Source: Escherichia phage JS10. From it: a stretch of 64,000 nt of DNA. Under the pieces are notes generated by a model. That model was not told where the DNA came from and did not search any database. It was given only the letters and a program-made list of their open reading frames with translations. Location: sequence record EU863409; one strand, written 5' to 3'. Positions 26,569 through 33,861 of this stretch are shown here, one piece after another. The translations under genes and the position numbers were made by a program. How positions within the stretch are numbered: position 1 is the stretch's first letter; every line of letters starts with the position of its first letter.

Positions 26569-27521
26569 TGTATACTTTACAAGAATTTCAAAACCAGGCA
26601 ATTAATATTGACCTACAAAGGAATAACCTGTTTAGTGTAGTATTTGCTACAGTTCCTTCTTCTAAATCCCAAGCGCTCCTCGACCAGTTCGGTGGAGCTT
26701 TATTTAACAATATCCCGTTGAATACCGATTTGTTTGGAATTACCCAAGGAGATTTAACCCAAGGTGTTACGACATTAGTGACAGCGGGCACTCAGAAGTT
26801 GATTCGTAAGTCCGGCATAAGTAAATATCTGATTGGAGCTATGTCATCCAGGGTTGTGCAGAGCTTACTAGGTGAGTTTGAAGTAGGTACATATCTGATG
26901 GATTTTTTCAATATGGCTTATCCTACGGCAGGTCTTTTAGTCCATGCCGTTAAAATTCCGGATAATACTTTGAACTATGAAATGGATTTGAACCACAACT
27001 CGCCTAATATCAAAATTACCGGAAGAGAATATTCCCCATTGGTATTAAGCTTCCGTATGGATTCTGAAGCTGCTAACTACCGTGCTTTTAATGATTGGGT
27101 CAATAGTGTCCAAGACCCTATTACACAATTAAGAGCATTGCCTGAAGATGTTGAAGCTGACATCCAAGTCAACCTTCATTCTCGTAATGGATTGCCACAT
27201 ACGGTGGTAATGCTTAATGGATGTGTTCCTGTTAGTGTTTCATCGCCGGAATTATCCTATGATGGTGATAACCAAATTGCTTCGTTTGATGTTACATTTG
27301 CTTATAGAAGTGTGCAGACGGGTGCAGTTGGTAAACAAGCTGCTTATGAATGGCTGGAAGATAAAGTCCTTAAAGGCGTAGCAGGTATAAGTGAGAGTAA
27401 CTCATTAAGTGCTTCTGTAGCTAAATTAAGCCGACTTTCAGGAGCTTCTAGTGGATTGACCGGATTGGTTAATACATTTGGTGGGCGTGCTATTAATAAT
27501 GGAATATCCAGGTTGTTATAA
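26568..27521 (+). CDS. 54: baseplate tail tube initiator gp54
   Basis: 317 aa (T4 gp54 about 320 aa); position. Confidence 0.85.
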   Translation: MYTLQEFQNQAINIDLQRNNLFSVVFATVPSSKSQALLDQFGGALFNNIPLNTDLFGITQGDLTQGVTTLVTAGTQKLIRKSGISKYLIGAMSSRVVQSLLGEFEVGTYLMDFFNMAYPTAGLLVHAVKIPDNTLNYEMDLNHNSPNIKITGREYSPLVLSFRMDSEAANYRAFNDWVNSVQDPITQLRALPEDVEADIQVNLHSRNGLPHTVVMLNGCVPVSVSSPELSYDGDNQIASFDVTFAYRSVQTGAVGKQAAYEWLEDKVLKGVAGISESNSLSASVAKLSRLSGASSGLTGLVNTFGGRAINNGISRLL

Positions 27522-27525
27522 CAAA

Positions 27526-27549
27526 AAAGGAGAGCTTACGCTCTCCTTT
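27526..27549. terminator. bidirectional hairpin AAAGGAGAGC-TTAC-GCTCTCCTTT after gene 54
   Basis: perfect 10-bp stem between convergent genes. Confidence 0.7.
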
Positions 27550-27555
27550 AGGGGT

Positions 27556-27846
27556 TTATTTACGGAACGAAATGAAACCTGCTGCGGTCATTAATGGCTG
27601 CTTTTTAACAAAGACCGTGATAGAAATAGGAGCTTCAGATTCAAGCTGACCGGTTACTACACCATTAAAGATATTTTCAGTTTGTTCAGGTTGTGAAAAA
27701 TTTTCAACCGGGCGTAAGTCGAACTGTTTGTCTTCGCCGAAAACTCGGCGTAATTCATTACCGACTGCACTGTCGAACTCTTCAGAAGCAGGGATAACGT
27801 TTTCAACTACCAGTTCTTGACCGTTAAAGCGGAATGTAGATTTCAT
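27556..27846 (-). CDS. hypothetical 96-aa protein (alt.-1-like position)
   Basis: ORF with GAGGAG RBS and an early-promoter cassette upstream. Confidence 0.5.
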   Translation of the reverse strand: MKSTFRFNGQELVVENVIPASEEFDSAVGNELRRVFGEDKQFDLRPVENFSQPEQTENIFNGVVTGQLESEAPISITVFVKKQPLMTAAGFISFRK

Positions 27847-27904
27847 AATGTTCTCCTCATGTTTGTGTAAGGTAATAGTACCACATCCTTGTGGTGTTGT
27901 AAAC
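27844..27904 (-). promoter_or_regulatory. early promoter cassette copy 2, with spacer hairpin ACCACA-TCCT-TGTGGT
   Basis: GTTTACA-N17-TACTAT ... ATGAGGAG-N6-ATG in front of ORF 27556..27846. Confidence 0.55.
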
Positions 27905-30027
27905 TACATTTTGAATTTATTTGGTAAAGAAGAGATGTCCAAAGATGCAGCAAGGATTTCCATAGCCTCATTACTTTCTGAAACAGATTCTGAAACTAGG
28001 AATTCTTTAAACCCATTCATCAATTTAACTTCACCGGTTTCCATCAGATGGTCGCCATCGTAAACGGACTCACTGAGTTCTGAAGGAGATGTCACTGTAG
28101 CTTCCATAAGGTATTTGTGAGATACTCTATCATTCATAGCAAAAGCCGCTACTTTATCAACCTTCAACAATAATCCGCGCGGAAGGATAATTTCTGCTTC
28201 TTCAGAATATTCCGTAAGGTCACCAGGAGCGATAACTTTAACTGCTTCAGCACCTCGAATAACCATACCGATTTCAGCAATCCTGTCTGCAGGGCCTTCA
28301 GGTGCAATTGGATTACCGAACTCATCTTCTTCCCATTCTACCTCTTCATCATCAACTTCACCTACGTCAGATGAACTACCACTAGCCAATTTAAACAACT
28401 CATCGGCGGAGGATAAAGAACCTTCATCACCAACAAAAACTGCTTGGTTGTCGAGGGCCATATAATTTTTACCAAATTCGCCAAAGATGTTAGGCTTTAA
28501 TGAAGCGGACACAAAGTTCTTAAAGTAAAATGTTTTGTTATCAATATTATGGCGTAGAATTTTGTATGGTAAATCCTGGCCACGATACAAAATAGTACCC
28601 TTAGGAAGTTTAATACCCTTAGTAAATGCTGAGTCTAAATCCTTAATCAATTTAATAGCTGTTGTATTGTTTTCGGATTCAGGTTTACCTAAAAGGAATA
28701 AGTTCATAGGAGCATATTCAGCTGCACAATATTCGATAATGGCATTACTTTCGTCTTTTGTCAAGCCCTTAGGTTTAATGAGCTCGCCTGAATAAGCATA
28801 CGCATCGCCAATAGAATCGTTAATTAGTTTATAAACGGCTTCCATAGCGAAAGCAATTCGGGATGCTTTCTCTGAAGGAGACCCCTGAAAACGGGCACTC
28901 AGGTTATTAACAATTCTCTTAATAATATCCAGACTATTGGTAGTATTGATTTGAGAAAGGCCGCTTAAAAGTCTATCGACTTCCGTATTAAAAAACGCCA
29001 TATTATTAGAGTAAATTTCAAACCCTTGTTTATCTCTATTAGCATAATTTAGTTTAAATTTACTATCAGTCATTAAAGCGTGCGTGAGAGCAATGGTGTA
29101 TCTAAAGTTGGCAAGGTCCTCACTCTTAGATTTAAACTGAGAGGCCTGTCGCATTTTAGTAATAGCACCTTTTTTAAAGTTCTGGCTAATCTGCTCAATA
29201 CCTTCGTTCTCAGGGCCTTCGGCCGAGTGAACAGGTACAGAAACTTCAAACTCGTTATAAACCTGCAATTCTTTAGGTGATAAAGTTTCAGGTTCGGCAG
29301 TAGAATACTGCGCTGCTGCAGCCATACGACGGGAAATTTTAGTACGAGAGATAACGGCCTTATCGGTACGTTTCTCTTCAACCTGTGCAATAGATGCCGC
29401 TACGGCTTCGACCTTACTTACGGCCTGTCCGGTTTTCTTAGAAACATAAACTTCACCGACTTTAGACTCAACCTTGGTATAAAGGTCCGCATCAATTTCA
29501 GGCATACCCTTGATATCTTCAATATTAGTGCCACGACGTGCTAAAAGAACGTATGTATGTTTACCACTAAACTGGAACATATCATCAACAACTTTAAACT
29601 TACCACCAGTACGAGCCATAGCCAAACGAGCTAATACACGCTGAACAGTAGGACCCTTACCTTTCATTTTCTTGGTAGGGAAACGGAACAAAACTGCATC
29701 CATTTTAAGTTTACTTACTTGTTCGTATATCGTATCGAAAATAGTATTCAATGCACCAAGAGGGTCAGAACCAAGGCCACCTTTGAGTTCAGCTGGAGCA
29801 CCCTTGCTCGACAAACTCATTAAAATAACATGAACGTATTTGTCGCCAGGCTTAACCATTTTAATAGCGTCTCCTTGAGACGCATAAGATACCATACGAG
29901 CAACAAGATTATCATTACCCGGTGCTTTAATAGAGAAAATCTGTGGGATACCGGAGCCCGGCTTAAGATTTGTTACTGGATAGTTTTTAGCGGAATCACT
30001 ATCAAAAACTTCGTTTAAATTTTCCAT
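27904..30027 (-). CDS. alt: Alt-like ADP-ribosyltransferase, paralogue B
   Basis: 707 aa; N-terminal about 200 aa collinear with paralogue A; ART motifs ILYRGQ (Arg), FVSAS (S-x-S), EEAEIILPRG (E-x-E). Confidence 0.8.
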   Translation of the reverse strand: MENLNEVFDSDSAKNYPVTNLKPGSGIPQIFSIKAPGNDNLVARMVSYASQGDAIKMVKPGDKYVHVILMSLSSKGAPAELKGGLGSDPLGALNTIFDTIYEQVSKLKMDAVLFRFPTKKMKGKGPTVQRVLARLAMARTGGKFKVVDDMFQFSGKHTYVLLARRGTNIEDIKGMPEIDADLYTKVESKVGEVYVSKKTGQAVSKVEAVAASIAQVEEKRTDKAVISRTKISRRMAAAAQYSTAEPETLSPKELQVYNEFEVSVPVHSAEGPENEGIEQISQNFKKGAITKMRQASQFKSKSEDLANFRYTIALTHALMTDSKFKLNYANRDKQGFEIYSNNMAFFNTEVDRLLSGLSQINTTNSLDIIKRIVNNLSARFQGSPSEKASRIAFAMEAVYKLINDSIGDAYAYSGELIKPKGLTKDESNAIIEYCAAEYAPMNLFLLGKPESENNTTAIKLIKDLDSAFTKGIKLPKGTILYRGQDLPYKILRHNIDNKTFYFKNFVSASLKPNIFGEFGKNYMALDNQAVFVGDEGSLSSADELFKLASGSSSDVGEVDDEEVEWEEDEFGNPIAPEGPADRIAEIGMVIRGAEAVKVIAPGDLTEYSEEAEIILPRGLLLKVDKVAAFAMNDRVSHKYLMEATVTSPSELSESVYDGDHLMETGEVKLMNGFKEFLVSESVSESNEAMEILAASLDISSLPNKFKM

Positions 30028-30030
30028 TAT

Positions 30031-32115
30031 TTACCCTTGGATGAATTTTTCTGGTATGTCATAGAGGTCTATGCATGAAGCCAAAAGAGGCAGTACGTCA
30101 AACCGTGTAGATTTAACAAATGAATCAAAAGATACAGGGCTTTCGGAAGTATCGAAGTCATCTTGGTATACGACCAACTCACCGGTTTCCATTAGTACGT
30201 CACCATCATACACTACAGATTCTTGAAGCTCATCCGTCGTCATAACTTCGGCTTGAACGAGTTTTGTATTACTAGATGTCGTTCCGTCATTATTAGAGGC
30301 ATCAGTTATTTTATTAACTTTGACCATCAATCCGCGTGGTAGAATAACTTCAGCTTCTGTTGCTATTCCAAGACTTCCTGGATATACCGCATTAACTTTA
30401 TGGGCTCCATCAATTGCCCATCCTATTTGAACTTTAACGTAATCAGGGTTTTCTTTATACGCTCTTATTTCATTAGGATTAATGGTTATTCCTTCTTCAT
30501 TTTTATCGACTGTCAATTCGTTGCGAACTTCCGGTTCTAAAAGACCAACCCCGGCATGTGTAACACCAAAACGTCCAAAAATGATAGGAGTCAGTGAAGT
30601 AGATACAAAATTTCTAAAATAAAATACCTTATTTTTAACTAGTGCTTCGTATATAGGAGCGGTCATACTCTGTGCACGATAAACTGTAATGCCTTCTGGT
30701 ATACGGTCACCATTTTCAAAAGCTGAATCAAGATTATTAACAGCAGATTCAATAGACCTTTCATTCATTACATCATAGTTCTGAGGATTATAACGTCCTA
30801 AAAGAAGATTATTGATGTCGGTATAACCTGAGCCGCAGTATTCTCTGATGCCGCGCTTTTGTGATGGGGTGTATTTAGAACCATCACGAGCGATAGTAAT
30901 ATCGACCATAATACCACCACCTACACCGGCAAAACTATAAATGCGTTTTTTAATGAACTTGGTCTTGGCCGCTTTCCACTTGGACTCGGTTAATTCATTC
31001 CAGACGTCGTCAGGTTGACCTTTACGAGTTTTGTTATGCATAGCCAGCCATTCGCCTTTATATTCTTCAAAAACCGTATTAATAACAGAGGCATATTTTT
31101 CTAGAGCTTTAACAGATGTCAAAGGTTCGTTTTTGATGGCTGTAAGAATTTTATCTTTAATTTTCTCTTGGATTTCACCTATACCGTGAAGAGGAAACAT
31201 TTTATATTCGTAATGCAATTCTTCAGCAGTGCCTTCAGCTACTATATTAGCAACTTTATTTTTAGCCGCAGGAGAATTGTTATTAGTGACCATTTCCTGT
31301 GCCTCAGGGATTAATGGAGCTGTTGCAGGTTTATTAAAATCTGCTGCAGTAGCTTCATATTTCTTAAACAGTTCACTTTCATTACGATAAGATTCTAAAG
31401 ACTGACTTGCTGCAATAGCGCGACGAGAAATCTTAGTCTTGGTTATAACCATTTTATCAGTGCGACGTTCTTCAACTTTAGCAATACTGCCGGCAATAGC
31501 AGTTTCTTTAGTAACCTGCACACCTTCTTTTTTAGAAATATAAACTTCACCAACATCAGAATCTACCTTAGTATACAATTCGGCATTAATTCCTGGCATA
31601 CCTTTGATATCTTCAATATCAGCTTGTTTACGAACTACTAGGATATAAGTATGTTTACCGGTAAATTGGTACATAGCCGGAACTACTTTGAAGCGTCCAC
31701 CAGTTTTTTGAGTTACCAGACGTTGGATAATCCGTTGGACAATAGGCCCTTGCCCTTTCATTTTCTTGGTTGGAAAACGGAACATCACAGCATCCATACG
31801 AAGCTTTTTAACTTGTTCGAATACTACGTCGAAAATGGTATTAATAGCATCAATAGGAGTAGGGCCTAAGCCGCCTTTAAGTTCGGCTGGAGAACCTTTA
31901 GCCGAAAGGCTCATAAGGATAACGTGGGCGTATTTATCACCTAATTTAACCTGTTTAATAGCATCGCCTTCAGAGGCATAAGATACCATACGAGCAACTA
32001 ATTGGGATTCGACATCACCAATCTTCCAAATCTGGGGTACTTTAAGTTTCGGGTTTAAGTTTACAGTAGGCAGCGTGCCTTCAGACTCAAACACTTCATT
32101 TAATTGTTCGGTCAT
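30031..32115 (-). CDS. alt: Alt-like ADP-ribosyltransferase, paralogue A
   Basis: 694 aa; ART motifs TVYRAQ, FVSTS, ATEAEVILPRG; 3-bp spacer to paralogue B. Confidence 0.8.
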   Translation of the reverse strand: MTEQLNEVFESEGTLPTVNLNPKLKVPQIWKIGDVESQLVARMVSYASEGDAIKQVKLGDKYAHVILMSLSAKGSPAELKGGLGPTPIDAINTIFDVVFEQVKKLRMDAVMFRFPTKKMKGQGPIVQRIIQRLVTQKTGGRFKVVPAMYQFTGKHTYILVVRKQADIEDIKGMPGINAELYTKVDSDVGEVYISKKEGVQVTKETAIAGSIAKVEERRTDKMVITKTKISRRAIAASQSLESYRNESELFKKYEATAADFNKPATAPLIPEAQEMVTNNNSPAAKNKVANIVAEGTAEELHYEYKMFPLHGIGEIQEKIKDKILTAIKNEPLTSVKALEKYASVINTVFEEYKGEWLAMHNKTRKGQPDDVWNELTESKWKAAKTKFIKKRIYSFAGVGGGIMVDITIARDGSKYTPSQKRGIREYCGSGYTDINNLLLGRYNPQNYDVMNERSIESAVNNLDSAFENGDRIPEGITVYRAQSMTAPIYEALVKNKVFYFRNFVSTSLTPIIFGRFGVTHAGVGLLEPEVRNELTVDKNEEGITINPNEIRAYKENPDYVKVQIGWAIDGAHKVNAVYPGSLGIATEAEVILPRGLMVKVNKITDASNNDGTTSSNTKLVQAEVMTTDELQESVVYDGDVLMETGELVVYQDDFDTSESPVSFDSFVKSTRFDVLPLLASCIDLYDIPEKFIQG

Positions 32116-32151
32116 AATAATTCCTCTTTAATAACCGTATTTATGCCATAA

Positions 32152-32167
32152 AAGGCCCGAAGGCCTT
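32152..32167 (-). terminator. hairpin AAGGCC-CGAA-GGCCTT upstream of alt
   Basis: perfect 6-bp stem, U-tract on the minus strand; followed by CATAAATA (32138..32145, 7/8 match to the late box) and an AAGAGGAA RBS. Confidence 0.4.
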
Positions 32168-32336
32168 AAAGTGGTAGCAACGTACGATATACTTCGAATG
32201 TCGGGCCTTTTTCATACCGGTCAAAAGTATCTTTGAAATCAGCAAAAGCTATTTCATCCTCAAACTCGAGGATGATTTGAGAGGCCGCGGTGGTGTTTGT
32301 ATTTGTTACAACAATTGTTTCTAAATAAGCTTTCAT
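32166..32336 (-). CDS. hypothetical small protein
   Basis: ORF 32166..32378; ATG at 32336 lies just after the ligase stop; weak RBS. Confidence 0.3.
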   Translation of the reverse strand: MKAYLETIVVTNTNTTAASQIILEFEDEIAFADFKDTFDRYEKGPTFEVYRTLLPL

Positions 32337-32337
32337 A

Positions 32338-33861
32338 TTATAGTCCAGTTTGAGACCAATCACCAAATACATCTTCAAATGTATCAGCTTCTGTTTTATC
32401 GAAACGCCAACCTTTAATAATTGGAAGGAAAATACCTACAGTATCAGTACGTCCTTTAGAATGAACCCAACCATTACATTCACAGTCAGCAATACGTCCA
32501 ATCAACTTACCTTCACGGGCTTGTTTCATAAGAAGTTCACGGTCTAAATCAGGACGGTCTTCTAATGGAATCAATACCTTTTTACCTGATTTATCTTTCT
32601 TATGGGTAGTATCTTTAAAACCTGAACCACAGTCAGATGTAATTCGACGACACCGCGATACCAGCTCGACACCACCAAGTTTGTTTGGGTCTTTAGAGTG
32701 TTCATAATAACCTACCACTTCTAAAGCGATATCGATTACTTCTTTGAACTTGATAAGATTCTTAGAACGGCGGTTTTCCCAGTAGGAGTCCATGTTCTTA
32801 AGGATAATACCTTCCAGGCCTTGGTCGACATATTTCTTATAAACAACTTTAGCTTCGTCAAGATTATTAACCCATTGGTTTTCGATAGCTTCAACACGCG
32901 TTGTACCATGCAATACGACATTATGAGCAACCATAAGTTCTAAGGCTGCAAAGCGTACATCATACTTATCGCCTTTAATTTTACCTTCGGAATATACGAC
33001 ATCCAATGGGACATAATCCCACGCCTGTAATACCATACCTGCTGCTTCGGTTGGAGTAATAGTTCCTTGAAGAGCCTTGTTAGCCAACCCGTTTGAAGTA
33101 GAACGATCGGCTACGGTTTGGAATTCCTTGGCTTTACTTAATTCAGGAAGTTCCTCATCAAACATACTAAACAAATCATTAGACGCTTTAGGTTCTACTT
33201 TAGGAGTGTGGTAAACTAATTCACCGTCAATCATAACACCATTAGGATGGCGCTGTCGAGCTTCTTCAGTCATGGCCATTAATTCAGCCGCCAAAAGATT
33301 AAGCCCTTGGTATTCATTACCACCGCGAGTAAGGAATGTTACGCCATCGTTACGAACTTCAGCAAAACAACGAGCACCGTCAGCTTTTAATTGGGCGAAC
33401 GCAGGCCATTTAATATTTTTCTTAATCAAATCTTCATCATAAGAACTAGCCAACATTTGAGGTTGTTCAGGGATTAAACCTTTCCAAACCTTGTTAGCAA
33501 TAGAAATCGATGCACCACATTCAAGGTCACGCATCATTACGCGACGTAATACCTCAGCGTCAGGACCCTTAGCATCGGCAATAATTTGGGCAAGCTCTTC
33601 AATAGCAGCATTACCCGTAATCTTACGGGTGGCTAATGTGAACTCGGCGAAATCAAGAAGGTCTTCAAGAGTAATCATACCAAAGGATTGAGACGTAAAT
33701 CCAGGTTCAGGCCACTTTTTAATACCGTAGTTTAAACGACGGGTATAAGCCATACGATATACACGTTTCAGAAGCTCGTTATCCTTTTCACGAGCAATAA
33801 TAGCTTCTTTAGATTTAGTAGAATCAATAGAAGCAATTTCGTTTAAAATATCTAAAATCAT
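32338..33861 (-). CDS. 30: ATP-dependent DNA ligase gp30
   Basis: 507 aa; adenylation motif KADGARC; position next to alt as in T4. Confidence 0.9.
   Translation of the reverse strand: MILDILNEIASIDSTKSKEAIIAREKDNELLKRVYRMAYTRRLNYGIKKWPEPGFTSQSFGMITLEDLLDFAEFTLATRKITGNAAIEELAQIIADAKGPDAEVLRRVMMRDLECGASISIANKVWKGLIPEQPQMLASSYDEDLIKKNIKWPAFAQLKADGARCFAEVRNDGVTFLTRGGNEYQGLNLLAAELMAMTEEARQRHPNGVMIDGELVYHTPKVEPKASNDLFSMFDEELPELSKAKEFQTVADRSTSNGLANKALQGTITPTEAAGMVLQAWDYVPLDVVYSEGKIKGDKYDVRFAALELMVAHNVVLHGTTRVEAIENQWVNNLDEAKVVYKKYVDQGLEGIILKNMDSYWENRRSKNLIKFKEVIDIALEVVGYYEHSKDPNKLGGVELVSRCRRITSDCGSGFKDTTHKKDKSGKKVLIPLEDRPDLDRELLMKQAREGKLIGRIADCECNGWVHSKGRTDTVGIFLPIIKGWRFDKTEADTFEDVFGDWSQTGL

Follow-up and report, generated by a model that had tools for sequence, protein, structure and literature searches.

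An experimentally characterized relative of the genes considered here is Alt of bacteriophage T4 (gpAlt, UniProt P12726), an NAD+–arginine ADP-ribosyltransferase (ART) that has been described both as a core protein and as an enzyme (PMC11404850). About 40 copies of this prohead-core protein are present per head, and they are ejected together with the DNA (PMC9958956, PMC9026906). T4 Alt is cut by gp21 at ITE-6 and LTE-619, as determined by mass spectrometry, and the removal of 63 C-terminal residues leads to a protein of 68.2 kDa (Ali et al. 2017, PMC5694885). It has at least 27 targets, including MazF and RNA polymerase alpha, which is modified at Arg265 (PMC8120803). Duplications of alt have been mentioned for JS98 and Bp7 (PMC4177764) and were noted by Jin et al. 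In addition, a list of paralogous alt duplications comprises T4 alt.-1/alt.-2, RB49ORF183c, and 44RRORF188c, together with the full-length duplicate 44RRORF187c (Nolan et al. 2006, PMC1524935). The GenBank note for T4 states that alt.-1 and alt.-2 'reflect an old duplication of the first part of gene alt'. Literature searches for a dedicated study of two Alt copies yielded only passing mentions of the duplication. Here, we analyzed a tandem pair of alt genes, altA and altB, in a stretch of 64,000 nucleotides (nt) of DNA from Escherichia phage JS10 (sequence record EU863409), which is called the window throughout.

As judged from the sequences, AltB is an ancient orthologous lineage that is common to Dhakavirus and Tequatrovirus, and the prediction that the two genes encode two packaged and injected, arginine-specific effectors is well supported. 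The overall explanation that we consider probable is an ancestral two-gene alt operon of T-even phages, which would specify two packaged effectors. The gene pair is already known at annotation level, is fairly common, and is itself no new discovery. The present analysis adds the B-type as an ancient lineage that T2 has and T4 lost by deletion, the differing termini as predicted propeptides, and the cassette-exchange behavior of the locus. The two genes are:

30031–32115, minus strand: altA, the upstream, A-type (T4 Alt-type) coding sequence; an open reading frame (ORF) for a precursor of 694 amino acids (aa) that matches PF03496 with 123 bits and PHROG 802 over its full length, is the ortholog of IME08 alta, and has the C-terminus ...PEKFIQG, compared with ...PYKFVQG in T4.
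27904–30027, minus strand: altB, the downstream, B-type coding sequence; an ORF for a precursor of 707 aa that matches PF03496 with 64.7 bits and PHROG 802 over its full length, and corresponds to IME08 altb; its ortholog is the second alt gene of T2/teqsoen.

An earlier sequence-only reading of this DNA had described two minus-strand ORFs of 694 and 707 aa that are 3 bp apart, which agrees exactly with the ORF listing (spacer 30028–30030). Both proteins pass the cut-off of 23.4 bits for the Pfam family PF03496 (ADPrib_exo_Tox), with scores of 123.2 for AltA and 64.7 for AltB, and this was the only Pfam family that matched either protein. The 674-position profile of PHROG 802 ('Alt-like RNA polymerase ADP-ribosyltransferase') is matched by residues 1–693 of AltA and 1–707 of AltB, with E-values of 1.9e-262 and 1.3e-250, respectively. 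Homology to T4 Alt is collinear and full-length for both copies, including the N-terminal domain.

The catalytic residues were mapped with an alignment of 14 proteins including T4 Alt, and the wider conservation was determined for 77 homologs. T4 R478, S503-T-S505, and E574-M-E576 align with R480, S505-T-S507, and E587-A-E589 of AltA, and with R482, S507-A-S509, and E610-A-E612 of AltB. The first serine, both glutamates, and the following L-P-R-G are invariant in the 77 homologs, and the arginine is present in at least 90% of them. The motifs that had been read from the letters alone (TVYRAQ, FVSTS, and EAEVILPRG in AltA; ILYRGQ, FVSAS, and EAEIILPRG in AltB) were found verbatim. The sequence-only reading would have been contradicted by a copy that lacks catalytic residues, and the domain-by-domain alignment revealed them to be intact in both. 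These results support the assignment of both copies to the Alt-family R-S-E ARTs with predicted intact active sites. The E-x-E form implies arginine specificity, which is established for R-S-E ARTs (reviewed in PMC8120803). For T4 Alt, the exchange 'Alt E577A' has been reported to abolish ADP-ribosylation (Pozhydaieva et al., PMC11404850). This designation does not fit the 682-aa T4 numbering used for ITE-6 and LTE-619, in which the glutamates of the motif occupy positions 574 and 576 and a valine follows at 577; the published E577 is probably the second motif glutamate with an offset of +1.

A direct comparison of AltA and AltB using BLASTP resulted in 65% identity for residues 1–240 (E 7e-103) and 34% over the C-terminal approximately 300 aa (E 1e-37), and no similarity was detected between residues of about 240 and 415. 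The shared N-terminal region of the sequence-only reading is present, but it comprises about 240 aa instead of about 200 aa, and the ART domains are homologous as well. Its further statement that the middle segments and the extreme C-termini differ was borne out, and the agreement as a whole greatly exceeds what chance would produce. Domain by domain, AltA and AltB are 65% (N-terminal domain), 10% (middle), 36% (ART), and 40% (tail) identical. In the following list of domains, arrows denote the predicted cleavage by gp21, and structural statements refer to AlphaFold2 (AF2) models and their predicted local distance difference test (pLDDT) values:

32095–32115, minus strand: AltA N-terminal propeptide (aa 1–7, MTEQLNE↓V); predicted gp21 site that aligns with T4 ITE-6.
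31396–32094, minus strand: AltA conserved N-terminal alpha/beta domain and helical linker (aa 8–240); 65% identical to AltB, with AF2 strands and helices at aa 17–238.
30880–31395, minus strand: AltA variable helical middle domain (aa 241–412); 10% identical to AltB, 35% to T4 Alt, and 68% to teqsoen AltA, all-helical in the AF2 model with a pLDDT of about 90.
30220–30879, minus strand: AltA ART catalytic domain (aa 413–632); R480 at 30676–30678, S505-T-S507 at 30595–30603, E587-A-E589 at 30349–30357.
30034–30219, minus strand: AltA C-terminal propeptide (aa 633–694); follows the predicted gp21 site LQE632↓S, which aligns with T4 LTE-619, and has a low pLDDT.
30010–30027, minus strand: AltB N-terminal propeptide (aa 1–6, MENLNE↓V); predicted gp21 site.
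29308–30009, minus strand: AltB conserved N-terminal domain and linker (aa 7–240), from alignment and model.
28768–29307, minus strand: AltB B-type helical middle domain (aa 241–420); 44% identical to teqsoen AltB, compared with 10% to AltA.
28069–28767, minus strand: AltB ART catalytic domain (aa 421–653); R482 at 28582–28584, S507-A-S509 at 28501–28509, E610-A-E612 at 28192–28200.
28285–28476, minus strand: AltB acidic, predicted-disordered insert (aa 518–581) between the S-x-S strand and the strand before E-x-E, from composition and pLDDT.
27907–28068, minus strand: AltB C-terminal propeptide (aa 654–707); follows the predicted gp21 site LSE653↓S.

The two proteins can be assigned to two paralog types that occur across genera. 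The A-type, which includes T4 Alt, is located upstream and has the tail ...KFIQG/KFVQG, while the B-type is located downstream and has the tail ...KFKM and a middle domain of its own. AltB of the window and the second Alt of Tequatrovirus teqsoen are 46% (N-terminal domain), 44% (middle), 58% (ART), and 59% (tail) identical. A tblastn search with the B-type middle domain alone retrieved 444 phage records, 42 of them at the Dhakavirus level of 95–99% identity and 402 at 43–45%, including T2, RB33, and pSs-1. T2 contains two intact tandem genes, which encode 697 and 685 aa and are separated by a 3-bp gap. The N-terminal domain alone was found at 1,742 places in 1,200 records, and multi-copy arrays are therefore common in Straboviridae. 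The sequence-only reading had spoken of duplicated and diverged copies, and a recent or lineage-specific duplication is not tenable, because the A-type/B-type pair is old, extends across Dhakavirus and Tequatrovirus including T2, and was lost by deletion in T4. A recent origin of the pair through duplication at the locus, or recent gene conversion, was also rejected on the basis of the N-modules of altA and altB, which have a nucleotide identity of 65%, a longest identical run of 23 nt, and a synonymous divergence (dS) of about 1.4.

Downstream of alt, T4 has retained codons 1–116 of a gene of the B-type with 96–98% identity to the teqsoen/T2 copy. A comparison of T4 GT7 (L004, 6555–6900) with teqsoen (L003, 6595–8652) revealed that alt.-1/alt.-2 contain a frameshift near codon 56, followed by an internal deletion of about 1.69 kb relative to teqsoen. 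T4 is therefore a natural altB-null.

Further results bear on processing in the prohead. In the alignment used here, T4 residues 7–619 amount to 68.2 kDa, which validates the mapping of the cleavage sites. By analogy with T4, an L/I-x-E motif would be expected at the N-terminus and about 55–63 aa from the C-terminus. All copies inspected have L-x-E at the two positions homologous to the T4 sites (AltA: LNE7↓V, LQE632↓S; AltB: LNE6↓V, LSE653↓S). The glutamate of the N-terminal site and the phenylalanine two residues further on are invariant in 17 diverse N-terminal domains, and the glutamate of the C-terminal site is invariant in the 77 homologs. Mature AltA is predicted to have a mass of 69.4 kDa and an isoelectric point (pI) of 8.9, and mature AltB 71.1 kDa and a pI of 6.0. 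The C-terminal propeptides of 62 aa (AltA) and 54 aa (AltB) are both acidic and would probably be removed before the enzyme meets a host protein. The difference between the extreme C-termini, at 40% identity, is real, but as a determinant of target specificity, the role that the sequence-only reading had given to it, it is unlikely to matter, because these segments are predicted propeptides that are cut off.

Within the family, conservation is highest in the N-terminal domain, with a mean pairwise identity of 66% in the 77 homologs versus 22% for the middle domain, 52% for the ART core, and 42% for the tail. No local Pfam model matched the N-terminal or the middle domains even at E ≤ 10. Every Alt homolog carries the precomputed Pfam label PF26846.1, which probably covers the N-terminal or the middle region. 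A profile of the N-terminal domain had no match among the PDB sequences. A GNAT acetyltransferase fold with an acetyl-CoA-binding motif was considered for this domain and may represent a fold resemblance. Sequence searches of the PDB retrieved no solved Alt structure and only toxins of the iota/CdtA type with E-values of about 1e-3, and Foldseek searches of viral predicted structures yielded nothing beyond other Alt-like or split-Alt proteins. A role of the N-terminal domain as a general delivery module for other effectors was considered and rejected. A phmmer search of 1.84 billion representatives yielded only 71 clusters. The domain is N-terminal in all of them, and in almost all it precedes an ART or a degenerate ART; it is thus a module specific to Alt, not a delivery adaptor of general use. 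In a few metagenomic proteins (P0171 with 1142 aa, P0175 with 541 aa, P0170, and P0172), the Alt N-terminal domain is followed by sequence without a Pfam ART match; by eye, P0170 and P0172 look like degenerate ARTs, and P0175 and P0171 could be fusions of the N-terminal domain to something else.

Selection was quantified with Nei-Gojobori estimates against IME08, MX01, and, for altB, UP19. The overall ratio of nonsynonymous to synonymous divergence (dN/dS) was 0.03–0.06 for both genes at dS values of 0.2–0.5, and for any single domain it did not exceed about 0.12, the tails being highest. Both genes are therefore maintained, and a decaying pseudogene was rejected for either copy, as both ORFs are intact.

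The divergence is not uniform along altA. Between the window and UP19, which belongs to the same genus, dS was 0.27 for the N-module and 0.19 for the tail, and about 2.0 for the middle domain and 1.5 for the ART domain. The ART domain of AltA is 93% identical (dS 0.53) to that of AltA of the Tequatrovirus teqsoen/T2, the N-module and tail of which are T4-like (98–100% identical to T4) with dS values of more than 1.4 versus the window. The middle and ART domains of AltA (30220–31395 of the window) were compared with L003 4504–6591, L006 4501–6588, and L007 705–2798, and the mosaic suggests that an internal effector cassette was exchanged between genera.

Similar observations were made for phages with larger arrays. 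MX01, QL01, WG01, and AnYang contain three Alt-like genes each, with the third copy inserted between the other two. In the MX01 array (L002, 3405–9665), this middle copy comprises 681 aa. Its N-module is B-like (90%) and its tail A-like (68%), and its cassette shares 80% identity with alt of VR7, a different T-even coliphage, and about 81% with 'altb' of Shigella phage SP18. The two intergenic junctions of MX01 are identical (CAAGGGTAAATAATG), which suggests that the array might have expanded by recombination at the repeated junction or at the N-module. The A and B N-modules are closer to one another within a genus (65–68%) than to their orthologs across genera (46%), and no recent conversion tracts were found between them. 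Either gene conversion long ago or a co-evolution with head components specific to the genus would account for this likeness. Taken together, the alt locus appears to behave as an exchange site for effector cassettes.

The elements that may govern expression of the pair are:

32152–32167, minus strand: terminator-like hairpin AAGGCC-TTCG-GGCCTT just upstream of the late box, identical in T4, teqsoen, phage 107, IME08, MX01, and UP19.
32138–32145, minus strand: late-promoter-like box CATAAATA, 22 nt upstream of the altA start codon; a 7/8 match with a putative function.
30025–30038, minus strand: altA–altB junction AAGGG-TAA-ATA-ATG, comprising the altA stop codon, the 3-nt spacer, and the altB start codon, with the Shine-Dalgarno-like AAGGG inside the end of altA.

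Upstream of altA, the hairpin (32167–32152) is thus followed by CATAAATA (32145–32138) and a strong ribosome-binding site, and a conserved terminator upstream of alt has been described (Nolan et al. 2006, PMC1524935). In T4, teqsoen, and phage 107, the position of CATAAATA behind the same hairpin is occupied by the canonical late box TATAAATA, and the C variant CATAAATA is conserved in IME08, MX01, and UP19, i.e. in four Dhakaviruses in all. The last approximately 420 nt of altA do not contain a second late box with up to one mismatch, the nearest being at 30459–30452, so that a separate late promoter for altB is improbable. The junction AAGGG-TAA-ATA-ATG is repeated at both junctions of the MX01 three-gene array, and its Tequatrovirus form is AAGGATAAATCATG. 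From this arrangement we infer one late transcript and translational coupling across the 3-nt junction. A scan for sigma-70 promoters and terminators around the genes was uninformative, with fewer promoter-like sites than in shuffled sequences.

The genomic context is that of T4 alt. The pair is located between the DNA ligase gene (30)/alt.1 and alt.-3/gene 54, in the orientation opposite to the baseplate genes, and the synteny is identical to that of T4 (29-48-54 / alt.-3 / alt / alt.1 / 30). The direct neighbors are:

27556–27846, minus strand: alt.-3 homolog (96 aa), the downstream neighbor; an ORF with 'alt.-3' of IME08 at the syntenic position.
32166–32336, minus strand: alt.1 homolog, the upstream neighbor; a 171-nt coding sequence at the same place in UP19, named 'alt.1' in IME08 and T2.

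For the alt.1 homolog, the ORF scan extends to a TTG at 32378, which results in a 41-nt overlap with the ligase gene; the start codon is likely the ATG at 32336 immediately after the ligase stop codon, as in the 171-nt gene annotated in UP19. A megablast search with 27500–32500 matched 563 phage records, and the best were from Dhakavirus (JS98-like T-even coliphages) with 90–98% identity. AltB matches with 100% identity a cluster representative that is labeled 'Alt RNA polymerase ADP-ribosylase [Escherichia phage JS10]', and the annotation of IME08 contains altb and alta for the same pair. The window, which has a GC content of about 40%, is a Dhakavirus of the JS98/JS10 type.

The divergence of AltA and AltB is concentrated in the helical middle domain (aa 241 to about 412/420) and between the S-x-S and E-x-E motifs. 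The latter segment is structured in AltA, with helices at 522–555 and pLDDT values of 84–95, and it is shorter than and unrelated to that of AltB. The 64-residue insert of AltB contains 18 D/E versus 2 K/R, including EVDDEEVEWEEDEF, and the pLDDT is below 50 at 518–539, 546–566, and 570–580. It renders mature AltB near-neutral, whereas AltA and T4 Alt are basic (pI 8.4–8.9). The loop just before E-x-E also differs, with YPGSLGIATE in AltA versus APGDLTEYSEE in AltB. In characterized R-S-E ARTs, the loops flanking these motifs, the phosphate-nicotinamide (PN) and ADP-ribosylating turn-turn (ARTT) loops, contact the substrate. It is plausible that AltA and AltB have different targets, an expectation that is based solely on the divergence of the middle domain and of the S-x-S/E-x-E segment.

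The sequences show that both genes are intact members of the Alt family with their catalytic residues and cleavage motifs conserved, that the B-type is orthologous across genera and was lost in T4, and that purifying selection acts on the pair. From these data we infer that both proteins are made late and together, packaged, processed, and injected, and that they modify arginines on different targets, which can be combined to the following mechanism. Both genes would be transcribed late from the promoter-like box upstream of altA, and their translation would be coupled over the 3-nt junction. The two precursors of about 77 kDa have the same plan, i.e. a predicted N-terminal propeptide of 6–7 aa, an alpha/beta N-terminal domain with a helical linker, a variable helical middle domain, the ART domain, and a predicted acidic C-terminal propeptide of 54–62 aa. 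Both would enter the scaffolding core of the prohead and be trimmed by gp21 at LNE↓V and LxE↓S, and the mature enzymes of about 69 kDa (AltA) and about 71 kDa (AltB) would stay in the head and be ejected with the DNA. In the first seconds of infection, they would use NAD+ to mono-ADP-ribosylate arginines of host proteins, as expected for the E-x-E type. AltA is the enzyme of T4 Alt type and AltB a separate, equally old lineage, which would most likely recognize another set of host proteins, since its middle domain and its S-x-S/E-x-E segment are unrelated to those of AltA.

Several observations weigh against two delivered enzymes with separate targets. Direct evidence for a B-type Alt in virions, for its cleavage or activity, or for targets distinct from those of the A-type was found neither here nor in the searchable literature, which also yielded no virion proteomics of AltA or AltB from this phage. 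The late box is a 7/8 match, and exact TATAAATA sites occur 17 times in the window (6.8 are expected by chance), none of them at this locus. T4 lost altB and grows well, and it can even do without alt (PMC9026906), which indicates that AltB is not needed under laboratory conditions. Dhakavirus AltB has S-A-S at a position at which at least 90% of the homologs have S-T-S, and a large, disordered acidic insert is situated inside its ART domain, where the confidence of the model is low. The last two features, together with the lower Pfam score (64.7 versus 123 bits) and the double description of Alt, as enzyme and core protein (PMC11404850), would fit an AltB that is packaged but catalytically weak or inactive, serving mainly as a component of the prohead core or of the head interior, or as a decoy that only binds via the acidic insert. 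However, the arginine, the first serine, both glutamates, the ILPRG strand, and the P/F residues after S-x-S have all been kept, dN/dS of the ART domain is the lowest of the protein (0.02–0.04), and AltB of Tequatrovirus has the canonical S-T-S and a much smaller insert; loss of activity is thus regarded as very unlikely.

Alternatively, the two copies might be equivalent in function and in targets (RNA polymerase alpha etc.), and the second might only raise the amount or the robustness of Alt activity. Such redundancy would agree with the catalytic triad, the arginine-type E-x-E, and the whole delivery architecture being common to both, with T4 managing with one copy, and with the promiscuity of T4 Alt, which alone has at least 27 targets (PMC8120803). 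It is nevertheless unlikely, as the ART domains share only 36% and the middle domains about 10% identity and the B-type has been kept distinct across two genera and in 444 records. Dosage duplicates normally stay similar or decay, whereas strong purifying selection acts on different sequences here. We give still less credence than to an inactive AltB to the idea that AltB is made late but not injected, acting in the producing cell or being degraded in the prohead, with AltA as the only delivered copy. The lack of proteomic evidence for a B-type Alt in virions in the searchable literature and the mature pI of 6.0, unlike that of the basic AltA and T4 Alt, would be in line with this idea; however, AltB has the N-terminal propeptide, the N-terminal domain, the C-terminal propeptide, and both gp21 motifs at the positions mapped for T4, which would have no obvious purpose in an unpackaged protein, and its gene is co-oriented and apparently coupled with altA. 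The operon of two packaged effectors is thus the explanation that we prefer.

More tentatively, two parts can be joined, namely that alt is a cassette-exchange site for capsid-delivered effectors and that AltB is a second injected arginine ADP-ribosyltransferase with host targets apart from those of the T4-type Alt; in this combined form, the proposal is possible but doubtful. The N-terminal propeptide and domain and the C-terminal propeptide may then be genus-specific, while the helical middle and ART domains, in one to three copies, may be swapped between genera. The targets of AltB may include nucleic-acid-binding or defense proteins that are drawn by the acidic insert.

Capsid-delivered ADP-ribosylation is known almost wholly from T4, which has just a broken remnant of the second alt gene, and an intact second alt under strong purifying selection is present in T2, in phages of the JS98 group, and in over 400 relatives that have been sequenced. 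If AltB indeed acts on targets of its own, T-even infection would include, in its first seconds, a host modification that is invisible in T4. The alt array, with its one to three copies and interchangeable effector cassettes, would then be similar to the hypervariable loci for internal proteins that counter host defenses. This is a modest lead for phage–host biology and for the choice of therapeutic T-even phages.

The comparison with known systems begins with T4 Alt, which shares with the pair the full-length family and architecture, the locus, the R / S-x-S / E-x-E residues, the gp21 motifs, and the hairpin, behind which T4 has the late box and the window the late-promoter-like 7/8 match. 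AltA belongs to the same paralog type (tail KFIQG/KFVQG), but the identities are only 46% (N-terminal domain), 35% (middle), and 63% (ART), and its effector part represents the T2/teqsoen allele (93% in the ART domain), not the T4 allele. AltB is the other paralog, of which T4 contains only the alt.-1/alt.-2 remnant. The orthologs of AltB are the second Alt of T2 (YP_010073850), teqsoen_164, gene 213 of phage 107, and the corresponding genes of about 400 Tequatrovirus records, which are located directly downstream of alt after a 3-nt gap and have the ...KFKM tail, the same motifs, and identities of 44% (middle) and 58% (ART). They differ from AltB in having S-T-S and a shorter, less acidic insert, the overall identity is about 48%, and their N-terminal domain is nearer to AltA of their own genus (68%) than to Dhakavirus AltB (46%). 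IME08 alta/altb and the Alt genes of JS98, JS10, and Bp7 (Dhakavirus) represent the same pair with 92–100% identity and no substantial difference.

Outside of the Alt family, T4 ModA and ModB are R-S-E ARTs of the same clade that occur in the same phages and serve arginine-specific host takeover, but, unlike Alt, they comprise about 200 aa, are made early, are not packaged, and lack the N-terminal domain, the middle domain, and the propeptides. The R-S-E toxins C3, Vis, iota-Ia, VIP2, and Certhrax have identities of 16–25% and, in contrast to Alt, are delivered as binary-toxin or secreted proteins. The binary-toxin type with two ARTs (VIP2, iota Ia, C2I) was rejected as a model, as the N-terminal domain of Alt is not a second ART fold. 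The MuF-fused or polyvalent-protein ARTs were likewise rejected, as Pfam gives PF03496 alone, and Aravind and co-workers placed Alt outside of the genuine polyvalent proteins (PMC5512222). The internal proteins IPI–IPIII of T4 resemble Alt as prohead-core cargo with a short N-terminal propeptide that is cut by gp21 and as proteins that are ejected with the DNA, and they also have hypervariable cargo behind a conserved targeting part, the capsid-targeting sequence. Unlike Alt, they are small, non-enzymatic, and devoid of a C-terminal propeptide, whereas Alt keeps its large conserved N-terminal domain in the mature form.

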